This document shows positions 23,147 to 63,772 of a stretch of 64,000 nt of DNA, one piece after another. Under the pieces are notes generated by a model that was not told the DNA's origin, ran no database searches, and saw only the letters and a program-made list of their open reading frames with translations. Both the position numbers and the translations under genes were made by a program. Source of the stretch: Gnetum montanum (lineage: Eukaryota; Plantae; Gnetophyta); NCBI GenBank assembly GCA_015680685.1, contig MNCI01000614.1:469655-533654 (forward strand), read 5' to 3'. Every line of letters begins with the position of its first letter. The stretch's first letter is position 1.

Positions 23147-23216
23147 TTGGTTGCTTTTTTAGCCCTTTTGTTCTTTTTGCACTTCTTGCATTTTTTGCAT
23201 AATCACTTGCTTAGCA

Positions 23217-32161: not shown

Positions 32162-32333
32162 AGGGTCCGAAAAGACCTTAAACTAACAAGCCTAGCATAG
32201 TTGTGCTCCTTAGGGTCTGAAAAGACCTTAAACTAACAAGCCTAGCATAGTTGCACTCCTCAAGGTCCGAAAAGACCTTAAACTAACAAGCCTAGCATAG
32301 TTGCGCTCCTCAGGGTCCGAAAAGACCCTTAAA
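32162..32333 (+). repeat. 50-bp tandem repeat, ~3.4 copies
   Basis: AGGGTCCGAAAAGACCTTAAACTAACAAGCCTAGCATAGTTG.GCTCCT. starting at 32162, 32212, 32262 and 32312. Confidence 0.95.
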
Positions 32334-35800: not shown

Positions 35801-36248
35801 CTACTGAACGACATGCTAAACTGTAACAAGTAAGATCCCTTATAGTCTTGTTTATGGATCTAAAGTAGTATTTCCTCTTGAGTTGCAGGTACCCTCACTC
35901 CGGATGATCCTATATGACGTCGTGAATGAAGCTTGAAACAACGAGTTGCAAACCATCAACCTCGGCCTAGTGGAGGAAGAACACGTGTAGATGCTAAGAC
36001 ACATCGAGCACTACCAGAGTGAACAACAGCAGAAGCACCATGCAGACCCGCATCGATGGCTAGTGCAAAAGGAATACCTTGTCCTCAAGGCCGTTTGTGA
36101 TCACATGAGTAAATTCTTAGCCAACTGGGAAGGACCTTACATGGTCACTAAAGCCTTTGAGAATGGAGCCTTCAAACTGGCGGACATGGACAACAACGAG
36201 GTCTTCAGCCTGGTGAACCACACGTACCTCAAGTTGTACTACATATGA
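32847..36248 (+). pseudogene. pol: pol of element B (RT, RNase H, archaeal-type RNase H, integrase)
   Basis: MPFGLKNAGATYQRAM, YVDD (~33639), LHFDG...TNNVEEYEGLL...IRGDSQLVVNQ, HEGLCGGH...CDTCQ, WGLDLIGP, TDNGPQF, NWEGPY; interrupted by nonsense codons. Confidence 0.97.
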
Positions 36249-36309
36249 AGTGCAATGACAACAACAAGCACCATCCTCTATAAATTGGTAGTCACACCAG
36301 GCAGCGTTC

Positions 36310-36540
36310 GTAATGACAATAAACTAGCAACATCAAGCAGCATCCGGCACGACGTTAAACTAGCGGCAACCATTCGCTACGATGTAAAACTGGTACTATT
36401 AGTCCACTATGACTATAAAATGGCATTGCATGTCCACTACGATGTAAAAATGGCATGTACAGTGTACTGGGACCTTAAACCAGCACAGCGGTCCACTGGG
36501 ATCTTAAACCAGCATAGCGGTCTACCAAGACCTTAAACTA
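36310..36540 (+). repeat. ~30-bp degenerate tandem repeats after the integrase stop of B
   Basis: Units such as GTCCACTACGATGTAAAACTGGCA and GGACCTTAAACCAGCA. Confidence 0.75.
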
Positions 36541-37512
36541 TGTTCGCATCACATCCCCAACATGCACTAGCACCAGATACACACCGAACGAGTGGGTGCG
36601 ATGCTAATAAGTGGGTGGGATGTTGTAGCTTTGGAACATCATTCATGACACACTGTGAACGTGGTCCAACACATATGCGACACCGCCACCCTTGGCATCA
36701 TGCTAACTCTCCAAAGACACTGTATGGCTTCACGCTAACCCTCCAAACCTATCGTCGCCATGGCCCATCACCTTGACGGTAGTTCTTGGGTTAGCTCCCA
36801 CATCTGGAGTGCCAGTAGTATTGTGGCCCAGCCATAATATTATTTCTTCAGCTCCCTGCCAATGCTTGGGCTTGCACAACGTTAGCTATGTGGCAACTAA
36901 TCCCATGGCTGAACCAAGAATGCAAACTTCTAGCAAGGATTCCAGGGCATCTGCACCCAACTCCTCCATGTCAGCATTACCATGGCTGCTGCTGGCCTTC
37001 CTACTTTGGGCATCTCACACCAGCAACGATGCCCAAGAGTAACAACAATGCCAACAGCCAACAAGACCTTGTCCCCGCAAACGCATCTCGCTACAACAGC
37101 GAACGTTACACTGTCGCGAAGCGAGTGCCTCGACTAACATGGCTATTTGAGAGTGCAAACTCCAGCACGTGCGCAACACAACTTGCCATATGGAAGGTGT
37201 TCGTAGGTAGGTCAAAGCCCTTCACGGATGTAACGAAACTCATCCAACGAAGGGAGCACCTATCCTACAAGAGGTTGAAGAACAGCGCCAGCCAAAGATG
37301 AAAACACAAACGAGCCCCTCAAAGCATTCCGACAAGGGACTTGGCTAAACATCATCTTTTCTCTCTACCTTAACCTCTGCAAAACCAATGTAACACACTC
37401 AAGCACGGCCAAGTGACATCTCAACACTCATCAAGTGACAACCTTAGCATTTCGCTTGCTAAGGTGTTTTGTATTCTTTGCCGACGTCCATCTAGCCTGT
37501 TCTCCAGACATT

Positions 37513-37524
37513 GAAAAAGAGGGG
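37513..37524 (+). promoter_or_regulatory. Polypurine tract of B
   Basis: GAAAAAGAGGGG, 4 nt before the 3' LTR. Confidence 0.85.
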
Positions 37525-37528
37525 CTAA

Positions 37529-39229
37529 TAAAACACCCTAAAATGTGAGGTCATCCTTGCTTCACTAGGCTCTTACAGTCTGCGCAGCACTATGGCATTT
37601 CATCAGGAAGAGAACGTTCTGAGTCCAAGCTGGCCAGTTCAGAAAATTTTCTACATTGAGCATGGACAGGTTCTGTACCATCCTGCCTACCCACCAAAGT
37701 AGCCTAAACAGCTGGCAACCTGCTCAGAAACAGTGTGCGGAATTGGCAGCAGCATTTTGGATGCGCAAGAAAAATTTCGGTAAGTTTTCTAAGTCATGAA
37801 GCCTACTGCGATACGCTATGCTATGTAGCATAGCAAGCTTCAGAAGACGATGGCAAAATGAAGTGCTACGCTACATGACGTCACACAGCGTAGCATGGCA
37901 ATGACTTCACTACCCACTCCCCTTACCCAATTTTGGATTTTGCAGTAATGTCTTTTCCATCAGGAAGCGGCGGACCATGTCTGCTGCTATGCTACGTTGA
38001 GCTACATGATGCAGTAAGGCATAGCAATCCTACAGAAGAGAGAGAAGGCAGTTCGAAAGGTAGAGTCAATGGAGTTCGCAAGACTTGCATCGCAAGAGAT
38101 AAGGTTTGCAAATCAGCAAAGCTTTCGTGACTAAGGTAAGTTTCTATGCTACGCTATGCTATGTAGCATAGCATAGCGTAGCAAGTATGTGACATATAGA
38201 AAAACGTGTGACAAAGTGCTACGCTACGTCAAGCATGCTACATCACAAAGCACAGCAAGGCATACAGGTGGTTTTGCAACATCAATGCACTCCACCTAAT
38301 TGGACCATTGGCACATGTCTCCAAATGATGATGGCACAATTACAGTGTAGTAGGATTGCAATTATTGCATACAAGTTCGCATCGCAATGGTCTTGTAGAT
38401 CCAATGGTCACAAACGACACGAGTGGTGCTAGCAAGACAACCAAGGCCTGAGGCACATAACATTCAAACCACCCCTTTTGCATGTCCTAGGTCCTACAAA
38501 TACCCCAGAAAATAGCATGCAAAGAGGTCTGTAATTTTTAAAAGTTGGAAATTTCAAAAGAGTTCGCATCTTTCTTGAAGTAGACAGCTTCCAAGTGGTG
38601 GGAACTTTGAAATTCTGAAACAAAGATTTCCCCTCTTTCTAGCATTGTAATATCAAAGTTATTTGTCTAACACTATAAACAACGACTCTCTCTCGGTTGG
38701 CATGAGGTACCTGTCTCCATTCTACCACCTTCATGAACCCCGCATTGTTTGTACATGAGTCCATTTCCAAGCGCATAGCTCTTTTTTCTCGGCATGCCTT
38801 GGTTACCCTTGGGATTTCTGCACTCCGTCACACTATGCAACCAATTGTATCCACCCTAACCAAGGGAGTTTGTAGCTTTGGAGCAGTGCATGTTTCGAGC
38901 CACACTTTACTTTATCTCTCATTTTTCATCTCATTTTTGCATTATTTTCTATCTTATTTACCTTTAAGCATTACTTCGTATTATTGTCGCATTTTTATAG
39001 TTTCTCCCCTGCTTCATTTACCCTTAAGCATTATCTTGCATTTCACATTATTTACATTGAAAAAGGCTATATTGACGCTGATGTAAGTCCCTGTCTGATC
39101 GACCAGACCATTCAAGGCACCCCATGTCCGCACACATCCAGCATGGCCCTCCCACGGATACAAGGTTGGAACTATCATGCCCGCTGACCCCTGGTGTTCT
39201 TTAAGCCACTGACATTTTCGGTCACTACA
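37529..39229 (+). repeat. 3' LTR of element B (1701 bp)
   Basis: TAAAACACCC (TG mutated)...GGTCACTACA followed by the TSD TCAAC; about 9 differences from the 5' LTR in the first 60 aligned nt, mostly transitions. Confidence 0.95.
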
Positions 39230-39234
39230 TCAAC

Positions 39235-41191: not shown

Positions 41192-42805
41192 TGAAACACC
41201 ATGAAATTCAAGCTACCATGATTTTCTACAAATGTTTCTAAGTGTCAACATGAGGTAAATGTTTTCTAAGTGTTGGGACTATGCTCTCCACTATACTAAA
41301 GTGTTGTTAGCCCAATAGAGAGTGTATTCAACACTAGAGGTCAATTTTGCAAATTTTCCTAGGTGTTAAGCCAATAGCAATAGAATGTGGTTGGCATGGA
41401 AGAAATAGTTTGACAAAATTTTCTAACTATTAAGACTATTCTCTCCATTAGACTACAACATAGTCACACATAGACAACATCAAGGCCTAGTTTTTTGCAG
41501 TTTTTTCTAACTATTGAGACTACGCTCTCCACTATCATGGAGCGTAGTCAAGCATAGTCAACTAAAAGCTAGATTTTGCAAAAAAAATTTCTAAGTGCTA
41601 AGACTACACTCACCCTCAATCAGGAGCATAGTCAACCTCCCCTAGAACATATTTAGCACAAAGCCACCTTTTTGCAAGATTAGTCTAAGTGTTGGACTAT
41701 GCTCTCCACTAGTCCAAAGCATAGTTAGGCATAGATATGCCAAACAACCTTCAAAGGCCTTCACAATGTAGCACTAGCATTCACATCAACTCCAACACAC
41801 CTTTGGCAAGAAGCATGCATCTTTTTGGTACCCCCTTTGTCCCAAAATTGTAACTACACTCGACACCACTTGAGATGGTGGACAACATACTTCCAAAGCA
41901 TAGTCTCCAAACTCACATTTTTTTTTCATTTTTGTTAGGTACATTGTAGTCTTTCTAGCACACAAACATGCAATTGGCAATGTATTCACAGTCTAGTAGT
42001 CTTTCAGAGTCCTTTGGAGCACACCAAAGCATAGCACTATTTGCTTCAGTGGAGAGTGTAGGTGGATATAGCATAGTTCCAATTGTTCCATTGCCACATG
42101 GCAACCAATCTACATTTCATAGGAAACATAGCCCTATAAATATCCCCATCCTTAACATTTTAGTGGTTGGAAAAAATTTTAGTTGGAAAATTTGAAATTA
42201 GCTTGGCATTTTTGGCATTTGGCAGTTTGGCATCTAAGCAAGGCAAGGCACCAAACACCACTATAGTACACCACAAACCATCGCAATCCACTGCACATTA
42301 TGGTGGCCAAGCTTGTAGGCATAGACACCATAGTAGAACATCCTTCTTTGTGGCTAGATACCCCAAGACTATGACTATGCTATTCACTACACCTACTATA
42401 CACTATATACCTTCACTCCTTCTAAGGTTAACTATGCTTGACCCTGTTTGGGGTGGTGCAACTTCCTTTCTCACACTTTCCCTATGCATTTTTAGAAATT
42501 TTATATGAATTTTAGCATTGTAGTTGCATTTTTCCACTATTTTTACATGTAACTATGCATTGGCACCTTTACTTTCGGTAGAAATCCTTGACTACACTCA
42601 CGCCTATTGACACCATGAATACTACATAAACACATTAGTACTGTTTTGGCATTGCATCCTATAAGTCCCCATTTGATCAACAAGACCATTCTAAGCATCT
42701 TGTCTCCACCTCTAGGAGGCCCTCACATGGATGTGGTATTAAAGCTATGCTCTTGCAAACCTTTCAGTGTTCCCATTCCAACCTCCAACATTTTTGGTCA
42801 CTATA
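41192..42805 (+). repeat. 5' LTR of element D
   Basis: TGAAACACC...TTTTGGTCACTATA; the first ~460 nt match 58028-58490; TATAAATA at ~42135. Confidence 0.9.
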
Positions 42806-42812
42806 GTTTTTC

Positions 42813-42829
42813 TGACACTAGAAGGAGGG
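42813..42829 (+). promoter_or_regulatory. Primer binding site (tRNA-Asn-like) of element D
   Basis: TGACACTAGAAGGAGGG. Confidence 0.8.
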
Positions 42830-43129
42830 CCAAATCTATTTTCCTCTTTTCAACTCTATTGACCATTGTCTTGTGTGCTCTCTACATCACCATTGCTAGC
42901 TGCAAGCTAGTGTAGAGCCAACAATCCTATGGACTTGCCTCATGCAGTAACTAAATCTTAGGCCAACACTGGCGTTGTCTATAAACTAGTTGGTGTAGAC
43001 TAGATCCCATTGTTAATTTCCCTGGAACCCCACATAGAAACCCCAAAGTTTTTCTTCCTTATACTTAGCTAAATTCTAGGTGCTCTCAGTGGAGAGCGTA
43101 GTTGGCTCTCAACATTGATAGCATTATCT

Positions 43130-43319: not shown

Positions 43320-46300
43320 ATGAATTCTGAACAACCTTTTGCATCAATCCCAAGCACACTCATTGTTCTACCTTCCCAGCAAGGAAATAGCATTGACCAC
43401 CTTGTTAGTCCTCCCATTGTAGAGCCAAAATAGTTCCTTAGGCTATGTGAACAAGATCTTGAATACATAATGCTCAACGATGTGTAGTAAAATTTCATTT
43501 GCATAAAATTCCAAGTTGGTCTATTCATAGACCACCAAGATATGAAGTCCAAGAAAGGTTACGAGCTCATCAAGAAAAATATAGGAAACTATGTCCCTTC
43601 CTTTGTTGACTTCATTCCACTCACCAAGCCTTATCAGTTGATGCTTTCTCATCTCATCTGAATGACTGAGTGTGAGGCAAGGATAGATTATGAGGAGCCC
43701 CTGCAAGAAGAGCATGATGAGTTCAAAGCTTGATCTAAGCATGAGGACTCTGTTCATACCTTCTTTCAGTAGACAACCCTTGATCTAGTCCTTCCACGAT
43801 CCTACCCACATGTCTTCCTAGAGATAGTTATAGCTCCAATGTCACCCTCTAGGTTGACACCTATCATGGCAACCCATCAAATGTAGTGTACACACCAAGA
43901 TGTAACACCTTCGATCAACCTGCCCTTTGTGGTATAGTCACAACTTGCCCAATCTTCCCTGCTAGTAACCATCATGCCTACATAGCCCTAGATGCACACC
44001 ATGCATATCCCTTAGCCACAAATGACTCATGCATCCTATGGCTTACTTGTTTCATCTACACCTTTAGTAGTGGCCCAACCCACACACACATGGTTTGCCC
44101 CAGTCATTCTACCGCAGTGACACCAACATAGTAAGCATCCCGTGTGGTCCCATAACCTATGGCCAGGTTGTGGACCACCTAACCAACATAGCAGGTAGTG
44201 TAAGCAATATAGCCTAGTACCACATCTCAAGGCTTGGATCAAGCATTCTAGTTTATCTAAACCTTAATATAAGAGGTCAAGTGGCTAAAGGCCACCTCCT
44301 TTGAAACTATTCATGAGGTGGAATTCTATCAAGAAAATCCCATAAGTCCTACTATTCCACCACTAACTCTCCAAACAAGGATCTCACTTCCTCACTTTAC
44401 CAAGAACAATAGTGAAGGGGATCCTAATTCTCACCTCATGACATTCTTGTCCAAATGCTTGCTACTGTAGGCATGGCCACACACCATCATACATGTGTTT
44501 GCCATGTCCCTTACTAGCAAGGCACTTGATTAGTACCGAGAATTATCTAGGACCTCCATCTCCTCTCTAGAGGATTTGCTTAGCCAATTTGTCACATTCT
44601 TCTAGTATAACTTGAATCCAAAAAGCACCCTTGACTAGCTTATGCAAATCAAGCAAGGCCATTTAAAGCCTATGTAGAAGTTTATCCAATGCTAGATCAC
44701 TTCACTACATGAAATCCATAAGCCAATCACTAAAATGCATCTTCTGAAAATCTTCAAGGGTGTAGTCAATGACTTTTTTAAGTCAAAATTGTACTATCTA
44801 GCCTTGTAGTCCTTGAGCCAAGCATATGCATAAACAAAGAGCATACAGGACATGACGAAAGTTAGTAAGGACCTGGTGTATGTGGCCTATAAGAACTTGC
44901 TCATGAAGAAGAAGAAGGACAAGGGCAAAGAAGCTACAACTATGGCAACTATGGTGAATGAAGTTAAAGCCACAAACCCAAAGCTGACAACCAAGCTATC
45001 CAAGGCCTAGACCAACAACAAGACTGTCAGCCCTAGAACTACAACAACAAACTAATCTATGCCATCTGCAATCATAGAACAAGAGGCTTCAAGGCCCAAC
45101 ATTGTGTGCAAGGATTACTCAAAGTACACCTTGCTACCCCTAAAATCATTGGAACTACCAGAACAACTGCTCAAGACTGGATGCATCCAATACAAGAAAA
45201 TGTTCAAAGATTCTCACAAAAGATACAACAGATACCGCAAGCTCTTGAAGAATTCCTTGGTTGTAGCCCCAAATAAGTCTCTAGTCCTCAAGCACTTTAG
45301 GCTAGACTAGTTTTACCACTATCATTAGTTTCCTGGCCACAACACTAACTTTTGCATGGCCTTGGAGGATGACTTACAATAGATGATTGACAAGGGTGAG
45401 TTGGTGCTCAATGACACTAACCCAATTTCACCCATAGAACCAATTGATGAGGGTATACAAGGATCCTCTCAACAAAAATTATGTAGGGTATGCCATCAAT
45501 ACCATCAATGTTGATGATAACCTAGAATAGGTGTAGTGACCATTTATGATTTGCATGCCCTCTAGCAACACAGGGGCCCTCTCGACCTCCACCAGTTCGA
45601 TGTTCCCATTTTTTTTCAAAGTGTTGCCTTAGGCATCCCTAACACCTTTTATGGTTAGGGTCCCATAGGAAATTGGAGCAGTAACAACCCAATCATCCTT
45701 TGTCATTAGGATGCTGCAACATGCTAGTTCTTTCCCTACCCACAGTCTAGTGGTGGAAAATGCATCAGTCCCTACCCATCAAAGGTCCCATCCTACAAGA
45801 AATGCTATCAATCCATCTAGATGGTAACCCAGAAGGCCTAATGAGTGGCTCACTAATAAAATGCTTAGGTAATACTAGGAGCAAAGAGTACTAGGTTTTC
45901 CCAAAATAATCCCCTTGTCCGTAGTCCACATGGCTAAAACAATCAAAAATGCCACTACTAGAAAGCCACAAGCAAGGACCAAGGCTTCCAAATAGGCTAT
46001 GCAAACCAAGCCTAAATCTTCTCCATAAGAGATCCATCTCCTAGGACATATGGAGAAGCTCAAGGCTAACAAAATGAAAAACACATGCAAAGACTTCCTA
46101 GACACATTAGCCCAAGTGAAGTAAGCCTTAAAGTAGAAAAACACAACGCTGAGCATTTATGACCTCATTATGACCTCCTCTACCCACCATGAAGCACTAG
46201 TTCACATGTTAACCTCCATTCCTATCAAGGAGGACATCCCAACCAATGAATACTCCATCCATGCTATGATGTTTCCTCTTGTACTACAAGAATCAAACTC

Positions 46301-47010
46301 AACAACCCTCGCATTTCATAACAAGGAAATTACGGTTGACTCTGAGAAGGATTAGGTCATCATAACATCCATGTTTATCATAATATGCATTGCATAATGT
46401 AATATCCATAAGGTACATGTTGATGATAGGGCAGCAGCAAACATCATCCCATACATTGTCATTGATAAACTAGCCCTTGCTAAGTAGAACAAACCCATAA
46501 CTTCCTAAAGTCCTTTAATAGATCACATGTTTTTGTTAGGGGCACCATCAAAATAGCTTTCATGGTAGGAAAAGAGTTCCCCATAACTACTAAATTCATC
46601 ATGGTAGAGCAGATTCCAAGCTTCAACCTAATCTTGGGTAGGCCTTGGTTGGCCCAATTATGAGTCGTCTACTCTTCCATTTATCAAGAAATCCACCATC
46701 CATACAAAGGTGGTGAGGTCATTATCCACAGTGACAATGTAGTTCCTCTAGCCATTAACAACATTGACATGAAGTAGGGGTTAAAGTTTGAGTTCCTTGA
46801 TGATGCATTCATAGTGAAGGACAATAGTGAAGCGCATAAGGCTGACCCACTTGAGCAAGTGGAAGAAACCAGCAACCTCCCAAAGAATGATTTATGAGTA
46901 GAATTTCCCTTTAACATAGCAAATAAAGGTCAAGGGGAGTACCACATAATACCATCTAGGCCCTATGCATCCCCTAACCTAGACTAGGTTAGAAAGCAAC
47001 TATGCAACTA
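43320..47010 (+). pseudogene. gag: Degenerate gag-protease of element D
   Basis: HFTKNNSEGDPNSHL, AMSLTSKALD, KDKGKE, protease VHVDDRAAANII (~46413) and NLILGRPWL; collinear with B. The start coordinate is approximate. Confidence 0.85.
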
Positions 47011-47749
47011 AGGTGTCCCCTTAGTCTAACACATGCTAGATGCCTACCTATCCTTCACTTGTACATTTAGCTATGCATTTCATTTTTTGTTTACCTTACA
47101 TTTGTCTATGCATTTACATTTAGCCTTATTACTTTAAATATGCATTATTTTCTTTTTTTATGAATTTTTTTACTTTGTTTATGCATTTGGCTTCGTTTAT
47201 GCATTCACTTGTTTAGTTTACCCTTTAGAAATTATTAGCTTATGCTTGAGAACCATAAAAATTAATAGAAATCAAAAAATGCCAAAATCACAAAAGGATA
47301 AATAGCATCACTATGGCCAACCATGGCCTTAAACTAGCAATGTGTGGCCTAAAATGGACTAAAACTACTATGGCCTACCATGACCTTAAACTAGTGACTC
47401 GTAGCCCAAAATGGCCTAAAACTACCATGCTTTGTTTCCTAGCTTGTAGCCAAAAATGGCCTTAAACTAGCAATCATCATTGCCTAAAATGGCCTTAAAC
47501 TAGCATAGACCCTCCTACTATGGCCTTAAACTAGCATGGAACTTGCAATGGCATAGTTACATTATCACCGCATAGTCTTAATTTAGCACATTTACTCATT
47601 GCATAGCAAGCCGATAACAATAAAAACAAAAGTTTATACATTATACACTATATATAGCAAATGCATCCATTACATCTCACATGAATAATAGTACATAGCA
47701 TGAGCATCAGCATCATGTAGTAAAAAATACAACAAAAATGCAAAAATGC

Positions 47750-50700
47750 CCAGCAACAGGGCCACATCAGGACATGCTCAACTGGTGGTACTAGCTGGTA
47801 GTGGAGGTCCCTCTTCCCCCACCGCACCATTGGGGCCTACAGCATCTCATAGTGCTTGCTACCACAACCACCACAAAATAAGCAGTTATCAAAGCAAACC
47901 TATAATATACAGGCTAACAACAAAACATGCGAAAGATCAAACAAGAAAACTAACCTAAGAGGGTCTTACATCATCAACTTCTAGTGGCAACTTGTCAAGG
48001 CCATTCTTCAAGCGTCGAAGGATCTCAGCCTCTGAAAGCTATGTCTAGGCTTGCTGGCCAAAGTTAATCACCACAAGGATCTTACCTTTTTCCATGGTAG
48101 TCCATTCAAGTGTCTTCATAGAAAATGTAGCAAAAGAAGCCTCTCTTGAGGGGGTGATGATCTACCTCTCAGGAGAGCCACTCATCATCATATTCCAAGA
48201 AAATAGATCATAAGCCTATTTTCCACCAATCACCTCAACGAACATCTCAAGGTAGAGGCATTCAATAAAATCCTCCTTGTACCATTAAAGGTACACATCA
48301 CACTTGCACTTGTATTGGTACTTGTAGTTCTTTCATGTCTTCCCCCACCTATACCCCTTGGTGCTATAGTTCTTCTAGTCCTAGTTCTTCAAGGTAAGAA
48401 AGTCCACCTGCAATAGCTACTCAATTATCTCCCATGTAGCCCCATTTTTGCCTCTAAGAGCTTACCAATAACAAGCATAGTCTATCTCAGAGGTCTTCTA
48501 GGTGCTATCTCCCTATAACCTAGCCACCAGAAAGTCATATCAATATTGAAGATCCCTAATCTTCATGTCCTAGCTGGTCACTCTCTCTTGGAGCTCATGC
48601 ACACATTTTCACATGTTCTTATTTGAGCACCTACAGATCCATAATGTTTTTTCATAGGAAAGCACATACTTTCTCACTATCTCATACATACAACAAGACA
48701 CATGATCCACCTTAGGAGGAAGGTCAAGGAGGGCATCAATCTTTACCACCTTGCTTGAATCCCAACAAAGCTTGTAATCTATTGGCATGCAACAAGAAAA
48801 TAATCTTAGCCACAACATTCAATCTATAAAGCAACATAAGTAAATTAGCATCATACTAAACACATCAAGCTCAAGATATATTTATTGTAAATTGTTCACC
48901 ATCTCCTCCACAATGTCCTCCATGAAGGAAAACTTATCGGTCATGTCTACCCACAACCCCATGTGGTAGGTACACAATGGACCACTATCAAGCACATATA
49001 AGATGGCAATACAACAATGTAATTAGCATACAACCAAATATCCAAAGATGCTAGAGTAAAAATCAATAACAAATAGTAACCCAAATAACTTACCTAGCAA
49101 GCCCTTAGGCATGAGTGCAGGAGGGTCACCTAGCTGTACACCATTAAATAGGTAATCAAAATCACCCTCATCGTGGTAGAGTATCCCCTCCTCCAATTTT
49201 TGGAGGATCTCTACTATACTAGGTAGCTCATCTCCATGAGCTTCCCCCTCCTTAGCTTGGGGAGGTGCTTCTTCTGCTACTGCCTTGGCTACCACTATGG
49301 TAGCCCTCTCTCTGATCCTTGCACTCACATACACATAACACATTAGTATTGGTTCATAGCATATCATAAATATAAAAAAAATAAAAAATATATACACATA
49401 TAAAAATACAATAAATGCATCTAGCAAGTTACGCATACTAACCTGTAGCCTCTATACGCAAGCTTTGAAACTTGATATGAATCTTCTTACTACTTGGCCT
49501 CTTGGCCTCTTAATCTTTTCCTTAGATGGTTCCACTATTCCTACAATGTAGCAATATACCTTAGCCACATCCCTATTGGCAACTAGTGGACCCTCACTTG
49601 CATAATCACATGAATAATGTGACTGCCCCATAGGACCTTTAATCATTACTAATAATGACTCATCGATTCTTGCATGGTCATAAAAAAGTTCTTAATCCAT
49701 GGCTTTGAGAGTTGCTCATGGCTTTGCACCATCCAACGTCCATCATCATGCATGACCAATAGCTTCGCAAACCTTTGTAGGTACCCTGTGAAAAATGCAA
49801 AGTGAACATGGGATTCACCTAGATGTTAAATCACAACCTAGAGATCTTTGCATGCAAGCTAATCACAATATAGATAGCCCAATTAAACCTAGTTTCCTCC
49901 AATAGCACATCTTTCACCACCCATGCCTGCTTCACCCCAAGGATCTTTCCTTGGAAGTGTAACTTTGGAAAGGCATAGGTGCAAAAAAGGAGGTAGAGCT
50001 CTCATACCTTGGGCACATGCACATCCTTGATTGGTATGCCCTTGTGAGATTGGATGGCATCCAACAAGTTCTCAATCTCTCCTCAATGGTCCACCTCTCT
50101 ACTAGCCTTATCAACAATCAATAGGCCATCAATGGGATGTCGAAAGAGGTTAGCAAAGAAGGCCTCATTGAGGTTAAGCACTACCCTCACATTACACATG
50201 TGGGTGATAAACTATCAAACATCACTACTAAAGGAGTCAATGATGGTGACCATTTTAGCCACTAGAATACATGGGCTAAGGGCCAAAAATAGGTCCATCA
50301 ACCATGCATGTGTGAGCTAAGAAGTCAATGCATATGAGGCCTTATGGCACAACCAATGTTGTGCACCCTCTACATCATCATATTTCATGATGAGGGTGGC
50401 CTCGATGTGGCCTATGGTGACCACCGTCACCTCACCTAAAGGAACCACTACTATAATAAAGGAAAAAAATGTTAGCATCATGCAAAAGGAAAATTAATAA
50501 GCATACGTACGTAAGCAAGAACATGAGCTAAAATAGTAAACACATACATGGCATAAATGGAATGTGAGATGAAGGTGGTAATGCAGTCATCTCCTTGATA
50601 ATAATCATACTGGTGGTTCACTCCTCATCCAACCAATCATGGGTCTTGCACCACTCATATGCCCTTGGGTATCAAGTAGGGCAAGCCTTCAAAGTAGACC

Positions 50701-51353
50701 CCACCTACTCAAGCATAGCTTCCCAAACATTTGGGCTAGAAGCGAACACTTCTAGGGTTGTGCGAGTCAAAGCTAAAGCATCTGACTCATTTTGTAGGCC
50801 CTTCTCATCAACTCTAAATCTAGCATTAAGCATGAGAAATTAGCAGAATAGCATTAGAAAATAGCAAAGATAAACTGTGAGAAACTATAAGAGCACTTAC
50901 CCTCCAACATAATACACAATTCCAAGTGGGTTTTGGAACAAGGTGTGCACACGCATATCAACAAAAATGGTGTTTTTTTTGTTGTAGAAACTGAACCCCA
51001 TGATGCACCAAATCCTAGATAGTCATCAAGAACCCCTAGGGCCTCTACCTGAACCACTTGCTCCATCACCACCAATAGTGGGCTCATCAGACATGAACTT
51101 TAAGATATCCCAGTTAGCCCCAGGTAGCAATGTCTTAGTGATGGCATTGGAAACCTCCAATACTAAGTGTGACTACATGATTATACTAAATTTCTATAGT
51201 AAGCACTCCAAGAACTCACAAGCTCCTAGTTGGAACCACACCACCTACTAACCCACCTATATATCTAGTACAAGCATGTTGGGTACAAGCTCACTCATGT
51301 AGCACAAGATGCCCACAAGCTCCATGACAATTAGGATAGCCTTCCATAGCACT
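47750..51353 (-). pseudogene. Antisense cargo gene of D (NIF-like and PMD-like), exon 2 onward
   Basis: Exons 51353-50901, 50819-50548 and 50450 onward have the same phases as B. Peptides LIVMELVGILCY..WFQLGACEFL..LSRIW..YNKKNTIFVD..LFQNP, FFANLFRHPIDG..FNWAIYI, WVDMTDKFSFM and KYVLSYEKTLW all align to B. Confidence 0.85.
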
Positions 51354-52939
51354 CTATAATAGCCAAGTAATAAACAAAGTGTTAGTATACATACATAGAT
51401 AAAAATTTTGACATAAAACTATTAAATAAAGTTAGCAAAATTAGCATAGTATAGCATAGACTAGCAAAATTTATTTTTTCATTTTGGCAATGCTCTCTAG
51501 GACCTTGTGGGTATAGGACGTCAACCAACTTATTATATGTGCTTTCTACTCACTAGGATATAGCACATTTGGATAGGATCAGCATTTTTTTTCATGGATT
51601 TCATACATTTAAAATCAGCATGTTTTCACAAGTTTAACATTGTGGTAGTTTCACATTTTTAGCATTATTATTTACAATCTGCAATTTTAGCATTGTTGCA
51701 TGATTAGCTAAATTTTTTCTAATGCTAGATAGTGTAGTCCAAAAATCTCCAAACTTTTCTAACTCTAGACTATCCTAGTGAAGAGTGTAGTTCAAAAATT
51801 TATGAAAAAATTCTAGCATTGGATTATCTTCGTAGAGAGCATGGTTCAAAAAAGAGGTAAAATTTTTTCTAACTCTGGTCACTATGACTATTGTCTCTAC
51901 AAAGCATAGTCCTAAAAAAACTAACTATTGGAAAGATGTATTTTTTCAAACACTTACATCAAGTACACCTCCAAGGCATGGGGAGTGTAGTCCTGGCCAC
52001 GGTAGTGGCCATGGTAGTAGAAGACAGAGTCTTGTCCATTGTCCCAATGCTCTCTACGTAACACACCCTATGTGCCCACTACACCTATTGTGCCTTGAGC
52101 ATTATGCTCTACCACGACACTATCTACTATGCCCTACTGTGGCTCTACCTATTGCACCCTACATGTCCTTCCCCTTCACAATTTTCTCTCCCTAAAAATT
52201 ATCTCAAAACAAAAAAAGAACAACATAAAACAAAAGGGTAGATAATGCTCTCTAGTGCTTAATGCCCTTATGGCTTCTACTATCGTGCTACAAGGCATAA
52301 TGCCCCCACAACCCTTGCTACACTATGAGGGCATAGATACCCCATGGCCCCCTATGACCCCTGACACATCTAGCCCCAATATCCCTCACAAAAAAATAAA
52401 AATTTTCATCCCCCCCCCCCCCCTTTCAACCCCCATTCCCTCNNNNNNNNNNNNNNNNNNNNNNNNNNNNNNNNNNNNNNNNNNNNNNNNNNNNNNNNNN
52501 NNNNNNNNNNNNNNNNNNNNNNNNNNNNNNNNNNNNNNNNNNNNNNNNNNNNNNNNNNNNNNNNNNNNNNNNNNNNNNNNNNNNNNNNNNNNNNNNNNNN
52601 NNNNNNNNNNNNNNNNNNNNNNNNNNNNNNNNNNNNNNNNNNNNNNNNNNNNNNNNNNNNNNNNNNNNNNNNNNNNNNNNNNNNNNCCCCTCTTTACAAC
52701 CCCTATTGCATACTTAGGAAAATTTTCATCACATTGCTTTTTATTCATTTGTGCACATTAACTAGTTATGACATGTGTTGCTTAATGTTTTGTTGGTTAG
52801 TTTTTCAAGAATACAACATGACCATGCCTAAGTAACTCCTTTCACCTCTGGTCCTCACTGCACCTCATGGTATTATTGAGCAATACATTAACCCACATTG
52901 CCTAGACCTTAAGCCTACAACCTATGCTAAATGCATAGC

Positions 52940-55900
52940 ATCTATAGAGACACCACTAGATTGGCCCAACTATCTAGATCAGGCTCTTTATCTAGAGGTA
53001 GGAGATGTCACAATGGATCCCTTTGTTAAGATCCCTATAACAACACCCAACAGCGAGGCAAAAATGCTAAAGCTAAGTTCATTGCTAGATCCCCAACATG
53101 CCCAAGACATCACTAAGGTGCTAAATGATAACATCAAAGCATTTACATAGTCATATGAGGACATGCCAATCCTAGAGCCCTAGCTAGTCTAGCACAACAC
53201 TATACTAGATCTTTGCAGTAAGCCAATAAAATAGAAAGCACACAAGGTTAGGCCTAAGGTGGCATTGGCCATCCATGATGAAATCAACAAGATTTATAAA
53301 GCCAGTTTTATTCAAGCCATTGACTATGCAAACTGGGTCTCCAACATCATAGTTGAACCCAAGAAAAATATAAGTATACACATTTTCATAGAATTTTGAG
53401 ACTTGAATAAGGCAGTCATTAAAGATGACTTCCTGCTACTCAGTATTGATCAACTAATCGATACCATAGCTAGTCATGCCTTATTATCCTTCATGGATGG
53501 GTTCTTAGCCTACAACCAAATTAGGATCAATCCTAAGCACCAACTTTGCACAACCTTTATGACCCTTTGGGGTATATTTTATTACACCATGATGCCCTTT
53601 AGACTCAAGAATGTACGAGCAACTTACCGACACATGATGACATACGTCTTTAGCGATTACATGTTAAGCTTGCTCAAAAATTATGTCAATGACATAGCAA
53701 TTAAGTCAAAAGAGTTTAAAATCATGCAAATTATTTGGACATAGTGCTTAAACATTTCTTTAAACAAAAACTTAGGTTGAATCCCAAGAAGTATGTTTTC
53801 AGCATCAAAATAGGCTAGATGCTCAGTTTCATAATATTCAAAGTAGGAATACATGTAGACCCTAACAAGGTTAAGGCCATAACCAACTTAGAACCCCCGG
53901 CCAACCTTAAGAAGCTACAAGGGTTACAAGGTAGATTGTAGTTCATACATAGGTTTATTACATAGTTAATCAACAAGTTATAGTCAATGCAACATCTGCC
54001 TAAGAAAGGAGCCCACTTCAAGTGGATAGCTCAATGCAAACACACATTTGACAATCTTAAGTAGGAGTTGGCTCAACTCCATACAATTCACCCTCCACAA
54101 GGAGATAAACCATTTTACATCTACCTTGCTACTGCTGACATGTCCATCACTTCTTTGCATTGTTAAAAGTAAGAAGATTGCAAAGAGATCCTGGTTTACT
54201 ACTTAAGCCATGCATTAGTAGCCCATGAAGCAATGTACAATGATGTAGAAAAGTAGTACCTTGCCTTAGTCTTCTCACTCAAGAAGTGGAGGCATTATCT
54301 TTTTTGCAGTCAAATCAACATCATTTGCAAAAATAATGTACTCTGAGTAATCACTGCAAACATCTACAAAATTAGTTGTATTGCATGATGGAAAGAAATA
54401 ACAATGGATTTTGGCATACATTATGTTACACAAGCCTCAACAAAAGGTCAAGCTGTAGCTACACAACTTACAATTTCACTAGTGAACGATCAAGTGACTA
54501 TAAACCCAAAATTCCCAGATGAGCATGTTAGTAGCATTATTTAAGTGCCTAAAAACTTTAAGGCACTCCTACATTTTGATAGGCCCTTAACATCTCAAGG
54601 GGATAGTTCTATTCCTATTATCACATTGCCTTCCAAGGAGATCCGACCCTTTGCATATCATTTTGCATTCCCTTGCACTAACAATGTGGCAAAGTATGAA
54701 GATCTCCTCCAAGATGACCTTGAAACATGCAACTAAGGGATTTCAAACCTAGAAATCCAAGGTATTCATAATTAGTGATCAACCAAGTAACAAAGGTTTA
54801 TGCCCATGAGGCCCAACATTTACAACCTTATTGTGACCTAGTAAAGCACTTGCTTAAATAGTTTGCAATAGTAGATGTCCAATACATTCCCTAGAACAAA
54901 AATGTCATAGCCAATGCATTAGCAACATTAGCCTTAAGCATCACACTAGACATGTTCCACACATTGCCCACCTTGATGGAAAATTGCACTATGCCTATCA
55001 CACAAACCATTGACATTGCATCCATAACCACAATTAGCATAATCCATGTAGGAGAATAGTATGACAATATCAAGGCATACCTTCTATAGGGTGAGCCTTT
55101 GCACCACTTCATTTTTTCTCAAAAGGAAATAATACAAAAACGTTCATGGTAGTATGTCATCATGGGTGATAACACATTATGTCGCAGACCCTTCAATGTC
55201 ATACTACTAACCTACATGAGCGACAATGAAGTTCAAACGATCATTTAGCAAGTCCATGAAGGATTGTGTGGATGTAAAATAACACATAGGACAATGGTAG
55301 TGATTATAATATTCTTAGGTTAATTTTGGCCTTACATGGAGCATGATTGTGTCTCCAAGGTCAAAATGTGCAACATGTGTTAACGGCATGGCAACTTAAT
55401 GCATGTGCCACCAACTGAACTACACACAATGCAAATCACATTGGGGCTTGGACATTATTAGACCCATCAAACCTAAGTCCTCTATAGGGCATATCTTCAT
55501 CATAACTACAACTGAGTACTTTACCAATTGGGTTGAGGCTATTTGCCTTAGGAAGACAACATCACAACAAGTTTGCAAATTTGTGCTTGATAACATAGTG
55601 ACCTATTTTGGATTACCCATGACCATAGTTATAGCCAACAGGTCATAATTCAACAGTGCTAAAACCAAAGCCATTTATGAGCACCTTGGCATTAAACATT
55701 CTTTTATGTCACTATACTACCCTTAGGAGGCGAATGGCCAAGTGGAGGCCACTAACAAAGTCATCATCAATCTTCTAAAGAAAATGCTAAATAACAACAA
55801 ACAATGATGGCATGAGCAATTAGTCTATGTACTCTAGGCCTACTACATAACATGATGAATGGTAATAGGTAAGACACCTTACAGTCTTGTCTACAGATCT

Positions 55901-56287
55901 GAAGTAATCTTACCCCTTGAATTACAGGTTCCATTGCTCCAAGTGATCCTCTCAAACTTCATTTATGAAGGCCAAAATAATGAGTTGAGGACCATAAAAC
56001 TTGACTCAATAGAGGAGTATCATACACAAATGCTTAATCTCATTGAATGGTACCAAGAAAAGAAAAGGCAAAAGCACTATCACAACCAACATTAGTGACC
56101 AATCAAGAAAGGGAACCTAGACCTCACAGCCATTCATAAACTCACAGATAAATTCTTAGCCAACTAGAAAGGGTCTTTCTTGATCATTAAGGACTATGAA
56201 AATAGAGCATTCGAGCATTCTTATCAAGATAAAAATGAGTTTGCCAATCTAGTGAACCATTCATACCTAAAGCCCTACTATGCGTAG
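52940..56287 (+). pseudogene. pol: Degenerate pol of element D
   Basis: SFMDGFLAYNQI, MPFRLKNVRATY, YVND, LHFDR, WGLDIIRP..YFTNWVEA; ends ...YLKPYYA*. Confidence 0.95.
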
Positions 56288-56329
56288 CATGTAGTGTTGC
56301 ATCTCAACAAAGAAAGGTAAGCACAACGA

Positions 56330-56645
56330 GTCTGCTATGACTATAAATTGGCATAGAAAGTCTACTATGACTATAAACTAGAATAGAAAGTCCACTATGA
56401 TTATAAACTAGCACCAATCATCTACTATGACATTAAACTACCAAAGCATCTATCCACTATGACGTTAAAATGGCATAGAAATAACCTTTTATCTTCATGA
56501 CATTAAATTGGCATAGCATTCATCCTTGGGTCATGACATTAAACTGACACAACAACATTTGTCTACTACAATATTAAAATGGCATGTTGCAATCCACTAG
56601 GACTATAAACTAGTGCATCATGATCTACCAAAACCTTAAACTAGG
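56330..56645 (+). repeat. ~30-bp tandem repeats after the integrase stop of D
   Basis: About 10 units of the form GTCTACTATGAC(T/A)(A/T)TAAACTAG. Confidence 0.8.
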
Positions 56646-58027
56646 TTCACCATCAATCACACATAGTTCCATGAGCAAGCAAGCAAGAATAATCTCAACC
56701 CCCCCCCCCCCACTTTTCTGCATGATGTGGAAAAGGATACTATAGTACCAGAATGGAGAACTAGCCATCATCTTGGCCTTTAGAGAATTTTCAGAATTAT
56801 GGCCCCCCCTACCATTTTGCTAATTTTTTGGGCTCTTATCATTACTCGGCCTTGAGAGCACTTGTAGCATTATGACCCTCTACCATTTTACTAGTTTTTT
56901 GAGCTCTTGTCATCAATGTAGCCTCTTGAGCACCTACAGCATCATCGCCTTCTCCCCCCCTTGGAATTTCATTGGCTTTTTGAATGCTTACCATCGACAC
57001 CAACTCTTAAGCACCTACAACATCATCACCTCCATCATTTTTCTGGCTTTTTGAGTGCTTGCCATTGGTTCAGCCTTTGGAGCACTAACAGCATTTTCAG
57101 CATCTACCACTTGATTTACATTTTTTGTTGTGGTTTTCTTATCTTCTCAAAGTTGTTCTTGTAGGACAAAGCCTAGGACCATTATGCAAAGGTGCATCTC
57201 ATCGCAGCAACAAGTCACCACATCACTCTGATGTGCACAATTAGACTAGCTAAGCCTCTCAAGAGTGCACATCCCTATTACCTCATTATAGCCTATTCAT
57301 ACCCATCCCTATACATTCATAACCTTTGTATTTTCCTACATATTCAAAACTGCAACGCCTCTGATGCATACATGTTATAACCACATGACATCCTCTACAA
57401 GTCAAACCATAGAACCCAAGGCAGACATAACATAAGTTGTCCCATGGAAAGCCTCTATTAGCTAGTCAAAGCCCAAATGGATGTAACACGAGTCATCTTG
57501 AGGAGGAAACAGCTATCCTACAAATGCAACGTAGTTTCACAAGCATCAAAGAAAAGCACATCTAGTGGCATTTCATAGTAGCAATTAGCATTGTGAAAAA
57601 TCCAAATAAGGTTCATCTCATAGAAAAACAACATAAAAAAAATATAAAATATGAAAAAGCATGAGTGTTGCAATTTTGCAACTAATCTAGCCTCGAATCC
57701 ACACTGACTCTCTCATGAGAATTCTAACAAGAGGTTAGTGTTTTCAGGGGAAAGCCACCCTAGTGCCATGGTCACTATCAGCTATGTTGACTCCACATCC
57801 TACATCATGACATCCCGCTTACACTTCATCTCCTCTTTTAGCCCTCACAAGTTACCTACACCTTGTACTCCTAGCATACCACTATCCACAACACTTTTGA
57901 GCACGATGCAATGACATTCGACCAGGCACATACTAGTAATGTCTGTGCTAAGCCTGTTGTGGTGTTTTATAGTTCTTTGTTAATGTCTCTCAAGCCACTC
58001 CTCCAAACATCAAAAAATAGGGGCCAA

Positions 58028-58490
58028 TGAAACATCACCAAATTCAGGCTACCATAATTTTCTACAAATTTGTGTAAGTGTCAACAGAAGGCAAATTTTT
58101 CTAAGTGTTGGAAATATGCTCTCCATTGTACTGGAGCATAGTTAACTTAGTAGGAAGTTAATTCAACATCAAATGTTAGTTTTGAAAATTTTCCTAACTG
58201 TCAAGCTAATAGTAGTAGAGTGTGGTTGGCATGGAACAAATAGTTTGGGAAAATTTTCTAACTATCAAGACAATGCTTCCCACTAGACTAGAGCATAGTC
58301 AAGCGTAGATAGCATCAAGGCCTAATTTTTTATAGTTTTTTCTAATTGTTGAGACTACACTCTCCACTGCCATGGAGAGTAGTCAAGCATAGTCAATTGG
58401 AAGCCAGATTTTGCAAAATTTCTTCTAAGTGTTGGGACTACACTCACCCCTAGTTAGAAGTGTAGTTAGCCTCCCCTAGAGCATAGTTAG
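58028..58490 (+). repeat. Truncated 3' LTR of element D
   Basis: Matches 41192-41656; homology ends at ~58490. Confidence 0.88.
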
Positions 58491-59152: not shown

Positions 59153-59447
59153 TTCTAAACATGAAGTGCATAATCTTGATTACTTAACCTACATATCAGT
59201 GTCATACTATAGCCATGGTGTCAATAGTTGGAATGCATTATTAGCTCTCATAACCATTTTCCTATGACATCTTTACCATTTCTTTATCATAACCTTTGTT
59301 CATCATCACAAGCACTCTTGGGCATGGTTCAACACTATTGGATCAAGCACAAAGAGGGAACTTTGGCGATGGACCTCTAGTGGTGTTTTATATTTTTTGT
59401 CAGTGTCTCTCAGGTTAATCCTCCAAAGTTCAACAAAGAGAGACCAA

Positions 59448-61017
59448 TGAAACACCACTAATATTTCATGATGGAACCTTCATTTTTTAGCTTGGGATAA
59501 TGATTCATTGTAAATGTGATATATGTAGAGCAAGAGCTACAATCTTGCATACTTCAACTTTTTGGAGCCAAAAAGTGCTCTAAAATTTATTATTTCCTTG
59601 CTACCCAACTAGAAATCAGTATCCCATGTCCATATCTAGACTTGGGAAGGCTGAGAACACCTTTGGAATGACCAAAAATGATATTTTTATGGTTTTTTGT
59701 AGGGGTATAGCCCCAACTACGCTGGAGCCATTTTTAGTAGTTACTGGAACTACACTTTCAGTAGTTACAATAGCTACAACCAATGTAGTCACCACCAGGG
59801 CCCAATGGAAGTGTAATGGTGGGAATGTTGGAATTTCTAGTTTTCCAACAACACCCATCACAGTCATTCCAAGTCAACAATGGCCAACATAGACAATATT
59901 CACCACCAAGCATACCACTTTTCAATGGATCATATCATTTTTGTAGTTCCCAATACTTGTTCCAATTTTTAGCACCTCCAACGTAGTCACAAAAGCCTAT
60001 TTTTCATTTATAGTAAATGGATGGCCTTCATGGATGTATTTAATTTTATATTTGCTGAAAATGACAACTATGCTACTAGTAGTCAGTAGACTATGCTGAG
60101 CGGACTATGTTTAGCAAACTAAGCTGAGTGGACTATGCTAATAGTAGTTAATCAACTATGTTGGCAATAGTAACCATTGTAAATGCACAATCAATAACAA
60201 TCTATCAATAATCAATGGTAGTCAATGGAAAATCCAAAAATGGCAATCATAGTCCTATAAATACCCAACATTAACACCATTTGTAGGTTCCAAAATTTGG
60301 CATTATTGCATCCCATTCAACAATTTTGAGCACTTGGCATCTTTCTCCATAATTGTTGGCAGTAATACCATTTCCCATTTCCAGCCATCATAACCCATCA
60401 CAGCCATTGCAACCTCATCTAGTAGTGTTTTTTGGTAGTAGAAACTGGGACTACACTAGGCATAGAGACTCCCATGTGGTTTCCATTACTCCAAATGTGC
60501 AACACCAATCACACTCCCATTTTGTAGATTTGGTGGAAACCAATGGAAAGCTACAAAAATTCAAAGCTGGGAAGAAATCAGATTGTGAAGACAACCTTCT
60601 CCAATGAACTTCATTCTTCTGCAAGCAACTTCCTGTGCCCTTGGGCACACACCTTTACATCATAAACCTAATTATTTTTACATTTTTATATAAAATTTAG
60701 TAGTTCATGCTATGCATTTTTTGGTTTCCATTTCCATTTCTACATCTAATTCTATAACTACAATTCTATTTCCATTTCCATTTGAGTGAATCCATCTACA
60801 TTTTCATTTCTAAATTCATCTATGAATATGTCTACATTTCCACAACCATTTTTGTTTCACATTTTCTAAGTCCTTGGGTGATTGGCAAGACTGTCTAGGG
60901 TACCTTGAATCCTATTTTTTTAGAGGCCCTTGGGATTCAAGGTTAAGACTATTTCAGCACTCAGATATTTTGATTTACCTCATTCCAAAAACTGAGATTT
61001 CCATCACTAATACTACA
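59448..61017 (+). repeat. 3'-type LTR (element F, same family as E)
   Basis: PPT AAAGAGAGA then CCAA-TGAAACACC; collinear with the reverse complement of 12728-14390; no PBS after it; end uncertain by about 2 nt. Confidence 0.8.
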
Positions 61018-62378: not shown

Positions 62379-63772
62379 TGATGAGGCCTCCTTGATGAGA
62401 AAGTTTGGTATGTTAAGATATGTTAAAGATATATGTTAAGGTATGTTAAAGATATGATATATTCTTGAGGTAATAATAGTTATTATATGATGTCTGCTAG
62501 TATTTGGTCATTATTATCTGTGTAAAAATAGTCTTCATAATTATACTAGAGGCTTAATTGGTATATACAACTAATAATTATTTTTGTTACCAATAGTCTA
62601 TTATACATTATATATATTTTTGGCTACATATCCTTGCTTATGACATGATTCTTGAAGTTTAGTGCTCAACCTTTTGGTTCTAAATGGAAATACTCTTGAA
62701 TAGCAAATTAATCGACTTTGTCAACTTTTTTATATGCCTTTTTGATTTTAACCTACTTTATAAACTAATATGAGTAGCTCTAAATAGGACCTTTTTTCTT
62801 AATAAACCCTCTTGATGAGTTGTTGTTGGTTGGTTGTGTTGACGAGGCCTTGTTGATGAGTCAACCACATCGACGAGGCCTCATCGATGTAGTCAACCAC
62901 ATCGATGAGGCCTCATCAATGCATCTCACCCTGTGTTAATGAGGCCGCATTAACACAATGGCTATCCATTACCTATAAATACATGCCTCTTAGCTACATT
63001 TATGGGGAATCCATATTTTAGTAGTAGCAAATCTCTTGAATTTTTTCAATTTGAAAGCAAGAATATTTTTCCCCAAGTGCCTACAACAGGAGTCATTGAG
63101 TGTACAAATCTTTATTTGAGCATTGTTGTACCTGAGCACAATAATTTGTGCAGTAATAAAGATGAGCATTTTGATAAACCTGTAGCACTTTAGATAAATT
63201 GGCTATTTTATTTATGCATTTAATGTTTTCAATTATTTATTAAATTCTTTCAATTAGTTATCAAATATTTTTTAGTTATTACATTAATGAGAAAATTAAG
63301 CAAGATAGATTACACACATAACTATGATTGCTTCAAGTGTAACACGTATTTGCTTGGTAATCCCAGCAACATTATCACTTAGTACATCTAGTAGCATAGC
63401 GTTTGGTCACCCAGCAATGGATACGTGGGTTTAGGATGTGTATGAAAAGTGGGAATGGATACTTATGTTAGGATTAGTTAAATGATTAGTTAATTTGTAA
63501 TTTAGATTAGTTAATTAAAGTCCTTTTATCTACATTTTGAGCACCAAAATATAAAATACAAAATGATAAAAATTGGATTCCTTAGTTACACTTAGCCATA
63601 CCAACATACATCACAAGTGTAATTAGGAGGATAACAATTGACCTTAAGGCTAGATTCACTTCCTAAAGGGCTAGTGCACTAGAAACAATAAAGTCCATGG
63701 AATTCAACCAAATTATGTGTGAACGCTTGTGATTCATATGGTTGGGCATAGGGGGTACCTCACTGCTCATCA
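62379..63772 (+). repeat. Probable 5' LTR of a different (possibly Athila-like) element G
   Basis: Terminal inverted repeats TGATGAG...CTCATCA, internal GATGAGGCCTCATC palindromes at 62815-62950, TATAAATA at ~62974, and a PBS-like sequence following. Confidence 0.6.

Follow-up and report, generated by a model that had tools for sequence, protein, structure and literature searches.

The window analysed here is a 64,000-nucleotide (nt) stretch of the genome of the gnetophyte Gnetum montanum (GenBank assembly GCA_015680685.1, contig MNCI01000614.1, positions 469,655 to 533,654 of the forward strand), and all coordinates below count from its first letter. It is a CG-poor nest of old plant long terminal repeat (LTR) retrotransposons with two N gaps (1474-2295 and 52443-52686). 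Two of these elements, B and D, carry an intron-containing gene, hereafter the cargo gene, on the minus strand between their gag-protease and pol regions, and a third, A, retains the beginning of it. Judged from sequence comparison, the cargo gene is a real, element-borne gene selected at the protein level, and all of its copies in the window are dead.

The antisense gene and the elements that carry it

Element B (20532-39229), inserted in the reverse transcriptase (RT) of element C, is a complete Ty3/gypsy LTR retrotransposon, as seen from its LTR pair, its target duplication and the order of its Pfam domains. Its gag matches Retrotrans_gag, its two protease-region stretches gave no Pfam match, and in its pol RT_RNaseH (residues 394-523) is followed by RVT_3/RNase_H (575-695) and then by integrase (INT). 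Element D (41192 to ca. 58490), inserted in the integrase of the older element C, has the same layout and is also a Ty3/gypsy LTR retrotransposon, by its partial LTR pair and by a domain order read through homology to B. D is older than B, with a Kimura two-parameter distance (K2P) of 0.24 between its LTRs over 469 nt, and its 3' LTR is cut. Both elements are assigned to the Tat type by the additional RNase H (aRH) between RNase H (RH) and INT, across which D aligns; this Ogre trait, present in B, is shared with Retand and several Tat groups of non-flowering plants and is thus not diagnostic. B and D belong to different families, the amino-acid identity between them being 54% for gag, 48% for the protease region and 57% for pol, with 30-35% of four-fold degenerate sites identical. 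The primer-binding site of D is presumably that for tRNA-Arg.

The gag-protease frame closes with a stop at an equivalent place in B (27039) and D (47011), and pol starts ca. 5.7 kb further on in both, the cargo gene occupying the minus strand of this spacer. An acceptor-like AG lies ahead of pol in A, B and D. Since B retains both LTRs and the target duplication, it moved as a unit with the cargo gene. Short tandem arrays (26-57 nt), several with a similar core by eye, flank the spacer gene or follow integrase in B, D and A (32162-32333, 36466-36538, 47310-47429, 56329-56440 and 7554-7624).

The seven exons placed in B (Table 1), of 110, 450, 293, 1047, 330, 135 and 827 nt, join in one frame with no frameshift and give 1,058 codons with 22 stops. 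All seven donors are GT, five of the six acceptors are AG, and the introns contain 38-45% T. A short acidic last exon, the acceptor of which is not clearly placed, is probable and brings the total to seven or eight exons. In D, exon 1 was found by neither tblastn nor local alignment and probably lies in the N gap at 52443-52686, and no in-phase placement was found for the donor of intron 6 and the acceptors of introns 4 and 5. In A, the exon 1 peptide aligns with that of B (z 8.7, 0/500 shuffles as high; z is given throughout against 500 shuffles), the donor falls at the same codon, and a TATA-like box stands 263 nt before this donor. The remainder of the A cargo is cut by the gap at 1474-2295. 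Positions 1-1473, where cargo sequence of A was expected, gave no match to the cargo profiles and may be a nested insertion or a misjoin.

A first-pass annotation, made from the letters of the window, had proposed that B and D share the intron positions and phases of this gene. Exon 2 indeed measures 450 nt in B and 453 nt in D with phase 2 at both ends, intron 2 (GT..AG, phase 2) measures 83 and 81 nt, and the exon 4 acceptors (B 30276, D 50450) are equivalent, both being in phase 1 and five codons ahead of the same E-V pair. Exon 3 had been said to be positioned identically; its acceptor falls in the same codon in both copies, but its length is 293 nt in B and 272 nt in D if the weak donor at 50547 is right, i.e. 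ca. seven codons shorter. The donors of introns 4 and 7 share their phase and lie within one codon by eye, and the intron 5 donor shares its phase. The peptides had been described as aligning through to the tail. They do so to the end of exon 7 (z 58 for exon 2, 12.5 for exon 3, 66, 23 and 6.4 for parts of exon 4, 13 for exon 6 and 58 for exon 7; no shuffle scored as high) but not in exon 5 (z 0.0) or the last acidic exon (z 0.1). The introns barely align, as had been claimed, and are not as conserved as the exons (7/7 at z -0.9 to 3.3; in DNA alignments the three large exons reach z 14-18). The same claim for the LTR U3 regions holds in a softened form, the whole LTRs of B and D aligning weakly (60%, z 10.6). 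The present analysis adds that the gene has a NIF-type phosphatase domain, that it sits between protease and RT, and that A contains a third copy.

Selection on the encoded protein

The cargo proteins of B and D are 34% identical, and 28% of their four-fold sites are identical (n = 95), a saturation on a par with that of gag (30%) and pol (35%). Identity by codon position was 0.50/0.60/0.40 across the 783 codons aligned. Transversions, which lie mostly outside methylation-driven decay, were counted in place of the dN/dS excluding CG/CHG sites that had been suggested earlier; by codon position they amounted to 0.26/0.19/0.36 with non-overlapping bootstrap intervals, and position 2 (18.5%) differed from position 3 (35.8%) with a Fisher p of 2e-14. 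The same periodicity appeared in a frame-blind DNA alignment in 3/3 exons tested, being weakest in exon 7. The raw pN/pS of the cargo was 0.59 vs 0.31 for gag and pol (corrected dN 0.63, dS ca. 2.6), and this 0.59 is an upper bound, given the saturation at synonymous sites and the inflation of the ratio by neutral decay since insertion. The minus-strand exon frame was the only one of the six in which stops were fewest and pN/pS was also lowest (0.59 vs 0.75-1.08), which rules out plus-strand coding as the source of the conservation. The cargo gene evolves faster than gag-pol, yet it is constrained.

The codon-position pattern and the saturated four-fold sites, thus, support the long purifying selection on the protein that the first-pass annotation had put forward. 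Its further argument from splice-site conservation stands in part. Intact splice sites within diverged introns count when taken with the codon pattern, but shared intron positions alone are not a proof of selection, since introns in antisense orientation would stay in the sense genomic RNA.

In the cargo, 2.0% of the aligned codons of B and 3.8% of those of D were stops; for pol the figures were 1.5% and 3.0%, and for D gag 4.6%. As the stop density of the cargo is close to that of pol, the cargo was likely as intact as pol at each insertion and decayed only afterwards. These figures also bear on whether the spacer contains a host gene or a nested DNA transposon (of MULE, CACTA or Helitron type) that was captured on two occasions or drifts passively, its conservation having been earned outside the retrotransposon. 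Multi-intron genes are generally typical of host genes and DNA transposons, intron 1 of D adjoins an assembly gap, and two full copies are too few for a comparison of cargo and RT trees. However, the site, the orientation and the flanking repeat motif are the same in B and D, the promoter and exon 1 of A sit in the matching place, the cargo is as dense in stops as pol and its synonymous sites are as saturated as those of gag and pol, and no transposase family matched the exons scanned. Such an origin is, therefore, very improbable.

The antisense unit might instead matter mainly as RNA, tuning pol by transcriptional interference or double-stranded RNA, with the protein secondary. Its layout builds convergent transcription across the gag-pol junction, and a role of this kind has been discussed for antisense open reading frames (ORFs) (PMC7264820). 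An RNA-only role would not, however, yield constraint at codon positions 1 and 2 of one frame alongside saturated four-fold sites, and we regard it as extremely improbable.

Domain content and proposed function

Exon 2 of B matched Pfam NIF (PF03031) at 29.9 bits (cut-off 21.8, E 5e-7) over profile positions 2-79 of 160, and all 30 ESM Atlas neighbours (30/30) of its stop-free first 95 residues were NIF (0.93, 202 of 256 features). Exon 2 of D, which is 38-41% identical to that of B, gave no Pfam match when searched alone, and no BRCT match was obtained in the cargo. A word-index search of the exon 2 profile against longer proteins returned 0/920 although NIF relatives exist; because these were missed, such blanks are weak, as are blank profile searches, the profiles being built from two decayed copies. 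The AlphaFold model of exon 2 was too poor (pLDDT 43) for its fold search, which gave no match at E 0.001 or Z 5, to be informative. PDB sequence searches returned nothing meaningful.

In fission-yeast Fcp1, the first Asp (Asp170) is the nucleophile, the second (Asp172) is the general base, and Asp297/298 bind metal (PMC4436666, in part; sources available in part are so marked below). The combination of DxDxT and a metal-binding Asp pair expected of an active FCP1/SCP phosphatase was found in neither B nor D. The residues of motif I are D-L-G-G-V (B) and E-L-V-G-I (D), the second Asp of DxDxT being absent in both, and the presumed metal-binding pair, placed by eye, reads A-C in B and D-M in D. 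Since the Gly codon of B is two changes from any Asp codon, decay alone is unlikely to account for the motif loss. The NIF domain of the cargo is likely to be catalytically dead. Phosphatase activity through a non-standard active site, or motif changes that followed insertion, would be in line with the first Asp of motif I and the Ser-Ser of motif II kept in B, with the one Asp kept in the last motif of D, and with there being only two copies, both decayed. Besides the codon distance in B, however, the loss of the second Asp from both copies, the Glu in the nucleophile position of D and the good conservation of the remainder of the domain (38-41%) make this improbable.

Exon 4 shows by eye what we take to be a likeness to plant mobile domain (PMD) or other transposon-protein patterns, and exon 7 contains a heptad-like stretch by a crude heptad score. 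The gene may, thus, be a variant of the PMD-coiled-coil extra ORF of Tat/Ogre elements, relocated and provided with an N-terminal NIF domain. Extra ORFs of this type are typical of Tat lineages, where they lie at the 5' or 3' end (PMC4408406, in part), and PMD proteins of the host occur paired with, or fused to, a phosphatase (PMC7156037, in part). Exon 4, however, gave no profile match to PMD (PF10536), and neither PF10536 nor PF04195 or a related family matched at E up to 10. Its profile found 0 matches at E 0.001 among 1.84 billion proteins and, in the word-index search against longer proteins, 0/2,766 candidates, and its AlphaFold model was unusable (pLDDT 35), so that the fold search was uninformative. 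We consider this derivation somewhat unlikely. The C-terminal 81 residues of exon 7 gave only phage matches in the Atlas, all below 0.9, which were dismissed as chance.

We consider it probable that Tat-type elements carry, between gag-protease and pol, an antisense, intron-containing gene for a NIF-type phosphatase domain and two unknown domains that is under protein-level selection and would encode an accessory factor, likely catalytically dead, which binds host phosphoproteins to help transcription of the element. From an internal TATA promoter, an antisense mRNA would be transcribed and spliced, encoding a protein of ca. 1,100 residues. The LTR-driven genomic RNA would read the gene backwards, and its introns would go unseen by the spliceosome and survive reverse transcription. 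Such passage could give the shared intron positions, whereas intact splice sites together with the codon pattern need selection. As has been reported for the short spacer of Ogre, the spacer would be spliced out of, or bypassed by, a putative sense RNA from which pol is made. The dead-phosphatase factor may bind phosphoproteins, perhaps the RNA polymerase II tail, and so aid transcription or escape from silencing. This binding role, directed at the polymerase tail or similar phosphoproteins and against silencing, is put forward as a tentative possibility, and it leans on the known substrates of the NIF family and on the pairing of host PMD proteins with a phosphatase in transposon silencing. 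A fuller version, in which an old Tat lineage made the protease-RT spacer a slot for a complete spliced antisense gene whose dead carboxy-terminal-domain phosphatase domain, fused to two domains of no known family, would be a decoy or reader of polymerase II tail phosphorylation against host silencing, is unlikely.

Several observations weigh against the accessory-factor interpretation. On the B spacer, 133, 49, 229 and 17 reads were placed from four RNA runs labelled as one species, with 0 splice joints in 4/4 runs, at a depth too low for a real test. The reads are mostly less than 90% alike to B and hence come from other copies, and in run X11 the lean towards the minus strand extends to bins beyond the gene. 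The RNA reads neither show nor exclude a spliced antisense transcript. Among 21 sequencing runs listed, eight, all of DNA and under four organism labels, contained 15-42% of the words sampled from the B cargo; they carry no weight in the present interpretation. That the D cargo and the pol beyond the N gap form one element is read from the LTR pair, the primer site and the purine tract. Element C has a repeat array and not the cargo before its RT, so that not all related families need the gene. The catalytic loss is deduced from a pair of decayed pseudogenes in which motif IV was placed by eye, and splicing of the spacer from the sense strand is putative. Finally, the ca. 250 conserved residues of exon 4 have no relative in Pfam, NCBIfam, PDB or 1.84 billion representatives, and the ca. 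275 residues of exon 7 have none in Pfam, NCBIfam or the Atlas, two large protein collections being outside that search; with both exons lacking relatives, nothing tested backs a nuclear or anti-silencing role.

Several further features of the window were recorded. Before the RT of C, in the slot that the gene occupies in B and D, 15300-19500 is a long diverged repeat array (ca. 190 nt as judged by eye; a near-palindromic core recurs in it) with no open frame, and its membership in C is unsure. Upstream of the gag core, a Pro/Thr-rich extension (23220-24100 in B, 43320-44200 in D; also present in element E) is weakly conserved and gave no Pfam match in the one frame scanned. Gly/Val-rich minus-strand frames between integrase and the 3' LTR (36600-37300 in B, 56750-57550 in D, 7850-8700 in A) are possibly a second small antisense gene, and A and D are 69% identical over 428 nt of this region (8286-8680 vs 57116-57538). 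Element E (LTR, primer site and gag; minus strand) lies at 11058-14658 and is broken at 11058 by the 3' LTR of A. An LTR related to that of E (80-83%) lies on the plus strand at 59180-60971, and a 32-nt tandem array followed by a TATA-like box at 62800-63100 is possibly the start of another LTR.

Table 1. Features of the cargo gene and of the elements that carry it, in window coordinates.
Feature	Position	Strand	Remarks
B cargo gene, exons 1-7	31816-31707, 31191-30742, 30658-30366, 30276-29230, 29093-28764, 28692-28558, ~28458-27632	-	
B TATA-like box	31967-31975	-	269 nt before exon 1 donor
B exon 2, NIF domain	30742-31191	-	Pfam PF03031; Atlas
D probable last exon, acidic, Gly/Pro-rich	47750-47858	-	Acceptor and frame by eye; boundaries uncertain
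D exon 7, 824 nt, phase 1 to 0	47955-48778	-	Helical with heptad-like stretch; aligns to B exon 7
D exon 6, approximate	48862-49000	-	Donor degenerate; aligns to B exon 6
D exon 5, acidic linker	49094-49317	-	Phase-1 donor at 49093; acceptor uncertain; no alignment to B exon 5
D exon 4, 1008 nt, phase 1 to 1	49443-50450	-	Internal frameshifts; ~250-residue conserved domain and basic linker; aligns to B exon 4
D exon 3, phase 2 to 1	50548-50819	-	Weak donor; aligns to B exon 3
D intron 2	50820-50900	-	
D exon 2	50901-51353	-	Homology to B indicates NIF/FCP1-type HAD domain
D intron 1, at least 1.09 kb	51354-52442	-	Runs into gap; weak local alignment to A intron 1 (174 vs 115 +/- 12, max 156 in 100 shuffles)
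D assembly gap	52443-52686		Probably hides promoter as well as exon 1 (position from local alignment to A)
Short tandem array downstream of D cargo gene	47310-47429		Related motif in B near 27130-27300
A TATA-like box (3500), exon 1 homologue and phase-2 donor (3237)	3238-3500	-	tblastn E 0.001; upstream of A pol
B 5' LTR	20532-22225	+	85.9% identity to 3' LTR 37530-39229; K2P 0.16
B target duplication, 5 bp	20527-20531 and 39230-39234		
B pol, single frame, RT, RH, aRH and INT	32802-36248	+	Pfam RVT_1, RT_RNaseH, RVT_3/RNase_H, Integrase_H2C2, rve
D 5' LTR	41192-42805	+	80% to 58028-58490 over 469 nt; C pol ends at 41192
D 3' LTR, truncated	58028-58490	+	Purine tract precedes
D primer-binding site	42806-42831	+	Core motif common to B (22236) and element E (12703, minus)
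D gag, decayed	43320-45560	+	tblastx to B gag
D protease region	46089-47011	+	Protease label by eye
D pol, RT-RH-aRH-INT, decayed	52806-56290	+	63% amino-acid identity to A pol; RT_RNaseH matches

Comparison with known systems

The RT-RH-aRH-INT order of Ogre and Retand has been described as the 'retrovirus-like' Tat structure (PMC6317226, in part), and the same order is reported for Tat elements of ferns, hornworts, lycophytes and gnetophytes (PMC10508981 and PMC13468544, both in part). Ogre resembles B and D in this order and in having a gag-protease ORF set apart from RT-RH-INT by a spacer. The Ogre spacer, however, is non-coding, averages 274 bp in length and, in pea and Medicago, is an intron that is spliced in part (PMC6317226, in part), whereas that of B and D measures ca. 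5.7 kb and holds a gene. Extra ORFs of Ogre with PMD lie 5' or 3' (431 3'-reverse, 3 5'-forward; PMC6317226 supplement), unlike the internal gene of B and D; the cargo profiles matched nothing else in the window, decay limiting the sensitivity of this search. The REXdb table of extra-ORF domains, which comprises strong matches in at least five elements, has no NIF entry (PMC6317226 supplement 2). NIF is also not named in the main-text results of an angiosperm screen (PMC9289625, in part), the full supplementary chart of which lies outside this coverage and may bear on the point. The literature covered, which leaves out subscription papers including a 2011 Genetica survey of extra ORFs, contained no account of LTR elements with a NIF domain or with a spliced gene placed between protease and RT.

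In Grande, RIRE2 and Retand, the interval from pol to the 3' LTR contains extra genes in antisense orientation that have a promoter of their own (PMC7264820; PMC11963269, in part). Those of Retand and Grande (gene23, TRP28 ORFs) resemble the cargo gene in being antisense, element-wide and conserved, with an internal promoter of their own, and a regulatory role has been proposed for them. They differ in their position and in being described as ORFs ('intron' being absent from the available part of PMC11963269), whereas the cargo gene has 7-8 exons and NIF. No match to TRP28 was obtained, and no long ORF was seen by eye in the minus-strand frames of the 3' region, where the Pfam scan covered plus-strand stretches of B. 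Multi-exon antisense transcripts are reported for Arabidopsis Copia elements; these are non-coding and LTR-driven (bioRxiv 10.1101/2024.04.02.587720, in part).

A host enzyme domain fixed in an LTR lineage is also seen in orchid Ty3/gypsy elements, which carry an AlkB m6A demethylase (PMC9289625, in part). That capture is recent, near to host proteins and active, while the cargo is old, highly diverged, spliced and likely inactive. Exon 2 of B resembles the FCP1/SCP (NIF) HAD phosphatases, with Pfam NIF above its cut-off and all Atlas neighbours being NIF; the cargo differs from them in its broken DxDxT and second acidic pair, in the lack of a BRCT match and in its fusion to unknown domains inside a retrotransposon. 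MAIN/MAIL1-PP7L and MAIL3 pair PMD with a phosphatase in the control of transposon silencing (PMC7156037, in part). They are host genes, however, and their phosphatase is of the PPP family and not HAD. For exon 4, a PMD identity is putative.

Extra genes are common in plant LTR retrotransposons, and their function is a long-open question since most have no recognisable domain. The NIF domain of the cargo comes from a well-studied enzyme family and makes function testable by activity and phosphopeptide binding. If the decoy reading were true, polymerase-tail phosphorylation would be a battleground between host and transposon. Antisense orientation would offer retroelements a general route to keep a spliceosomal gene intact through reverse transcription, and because the cargo gene is split into exons, screens by ORF length would miss it. 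The surveys covered class extra ORFs as 5' or 3', and a gene between gag-protease and pol is a layout not among theirs. The cargo gene is new among Tat accessory genes in its position, its exon structure and its domain content.

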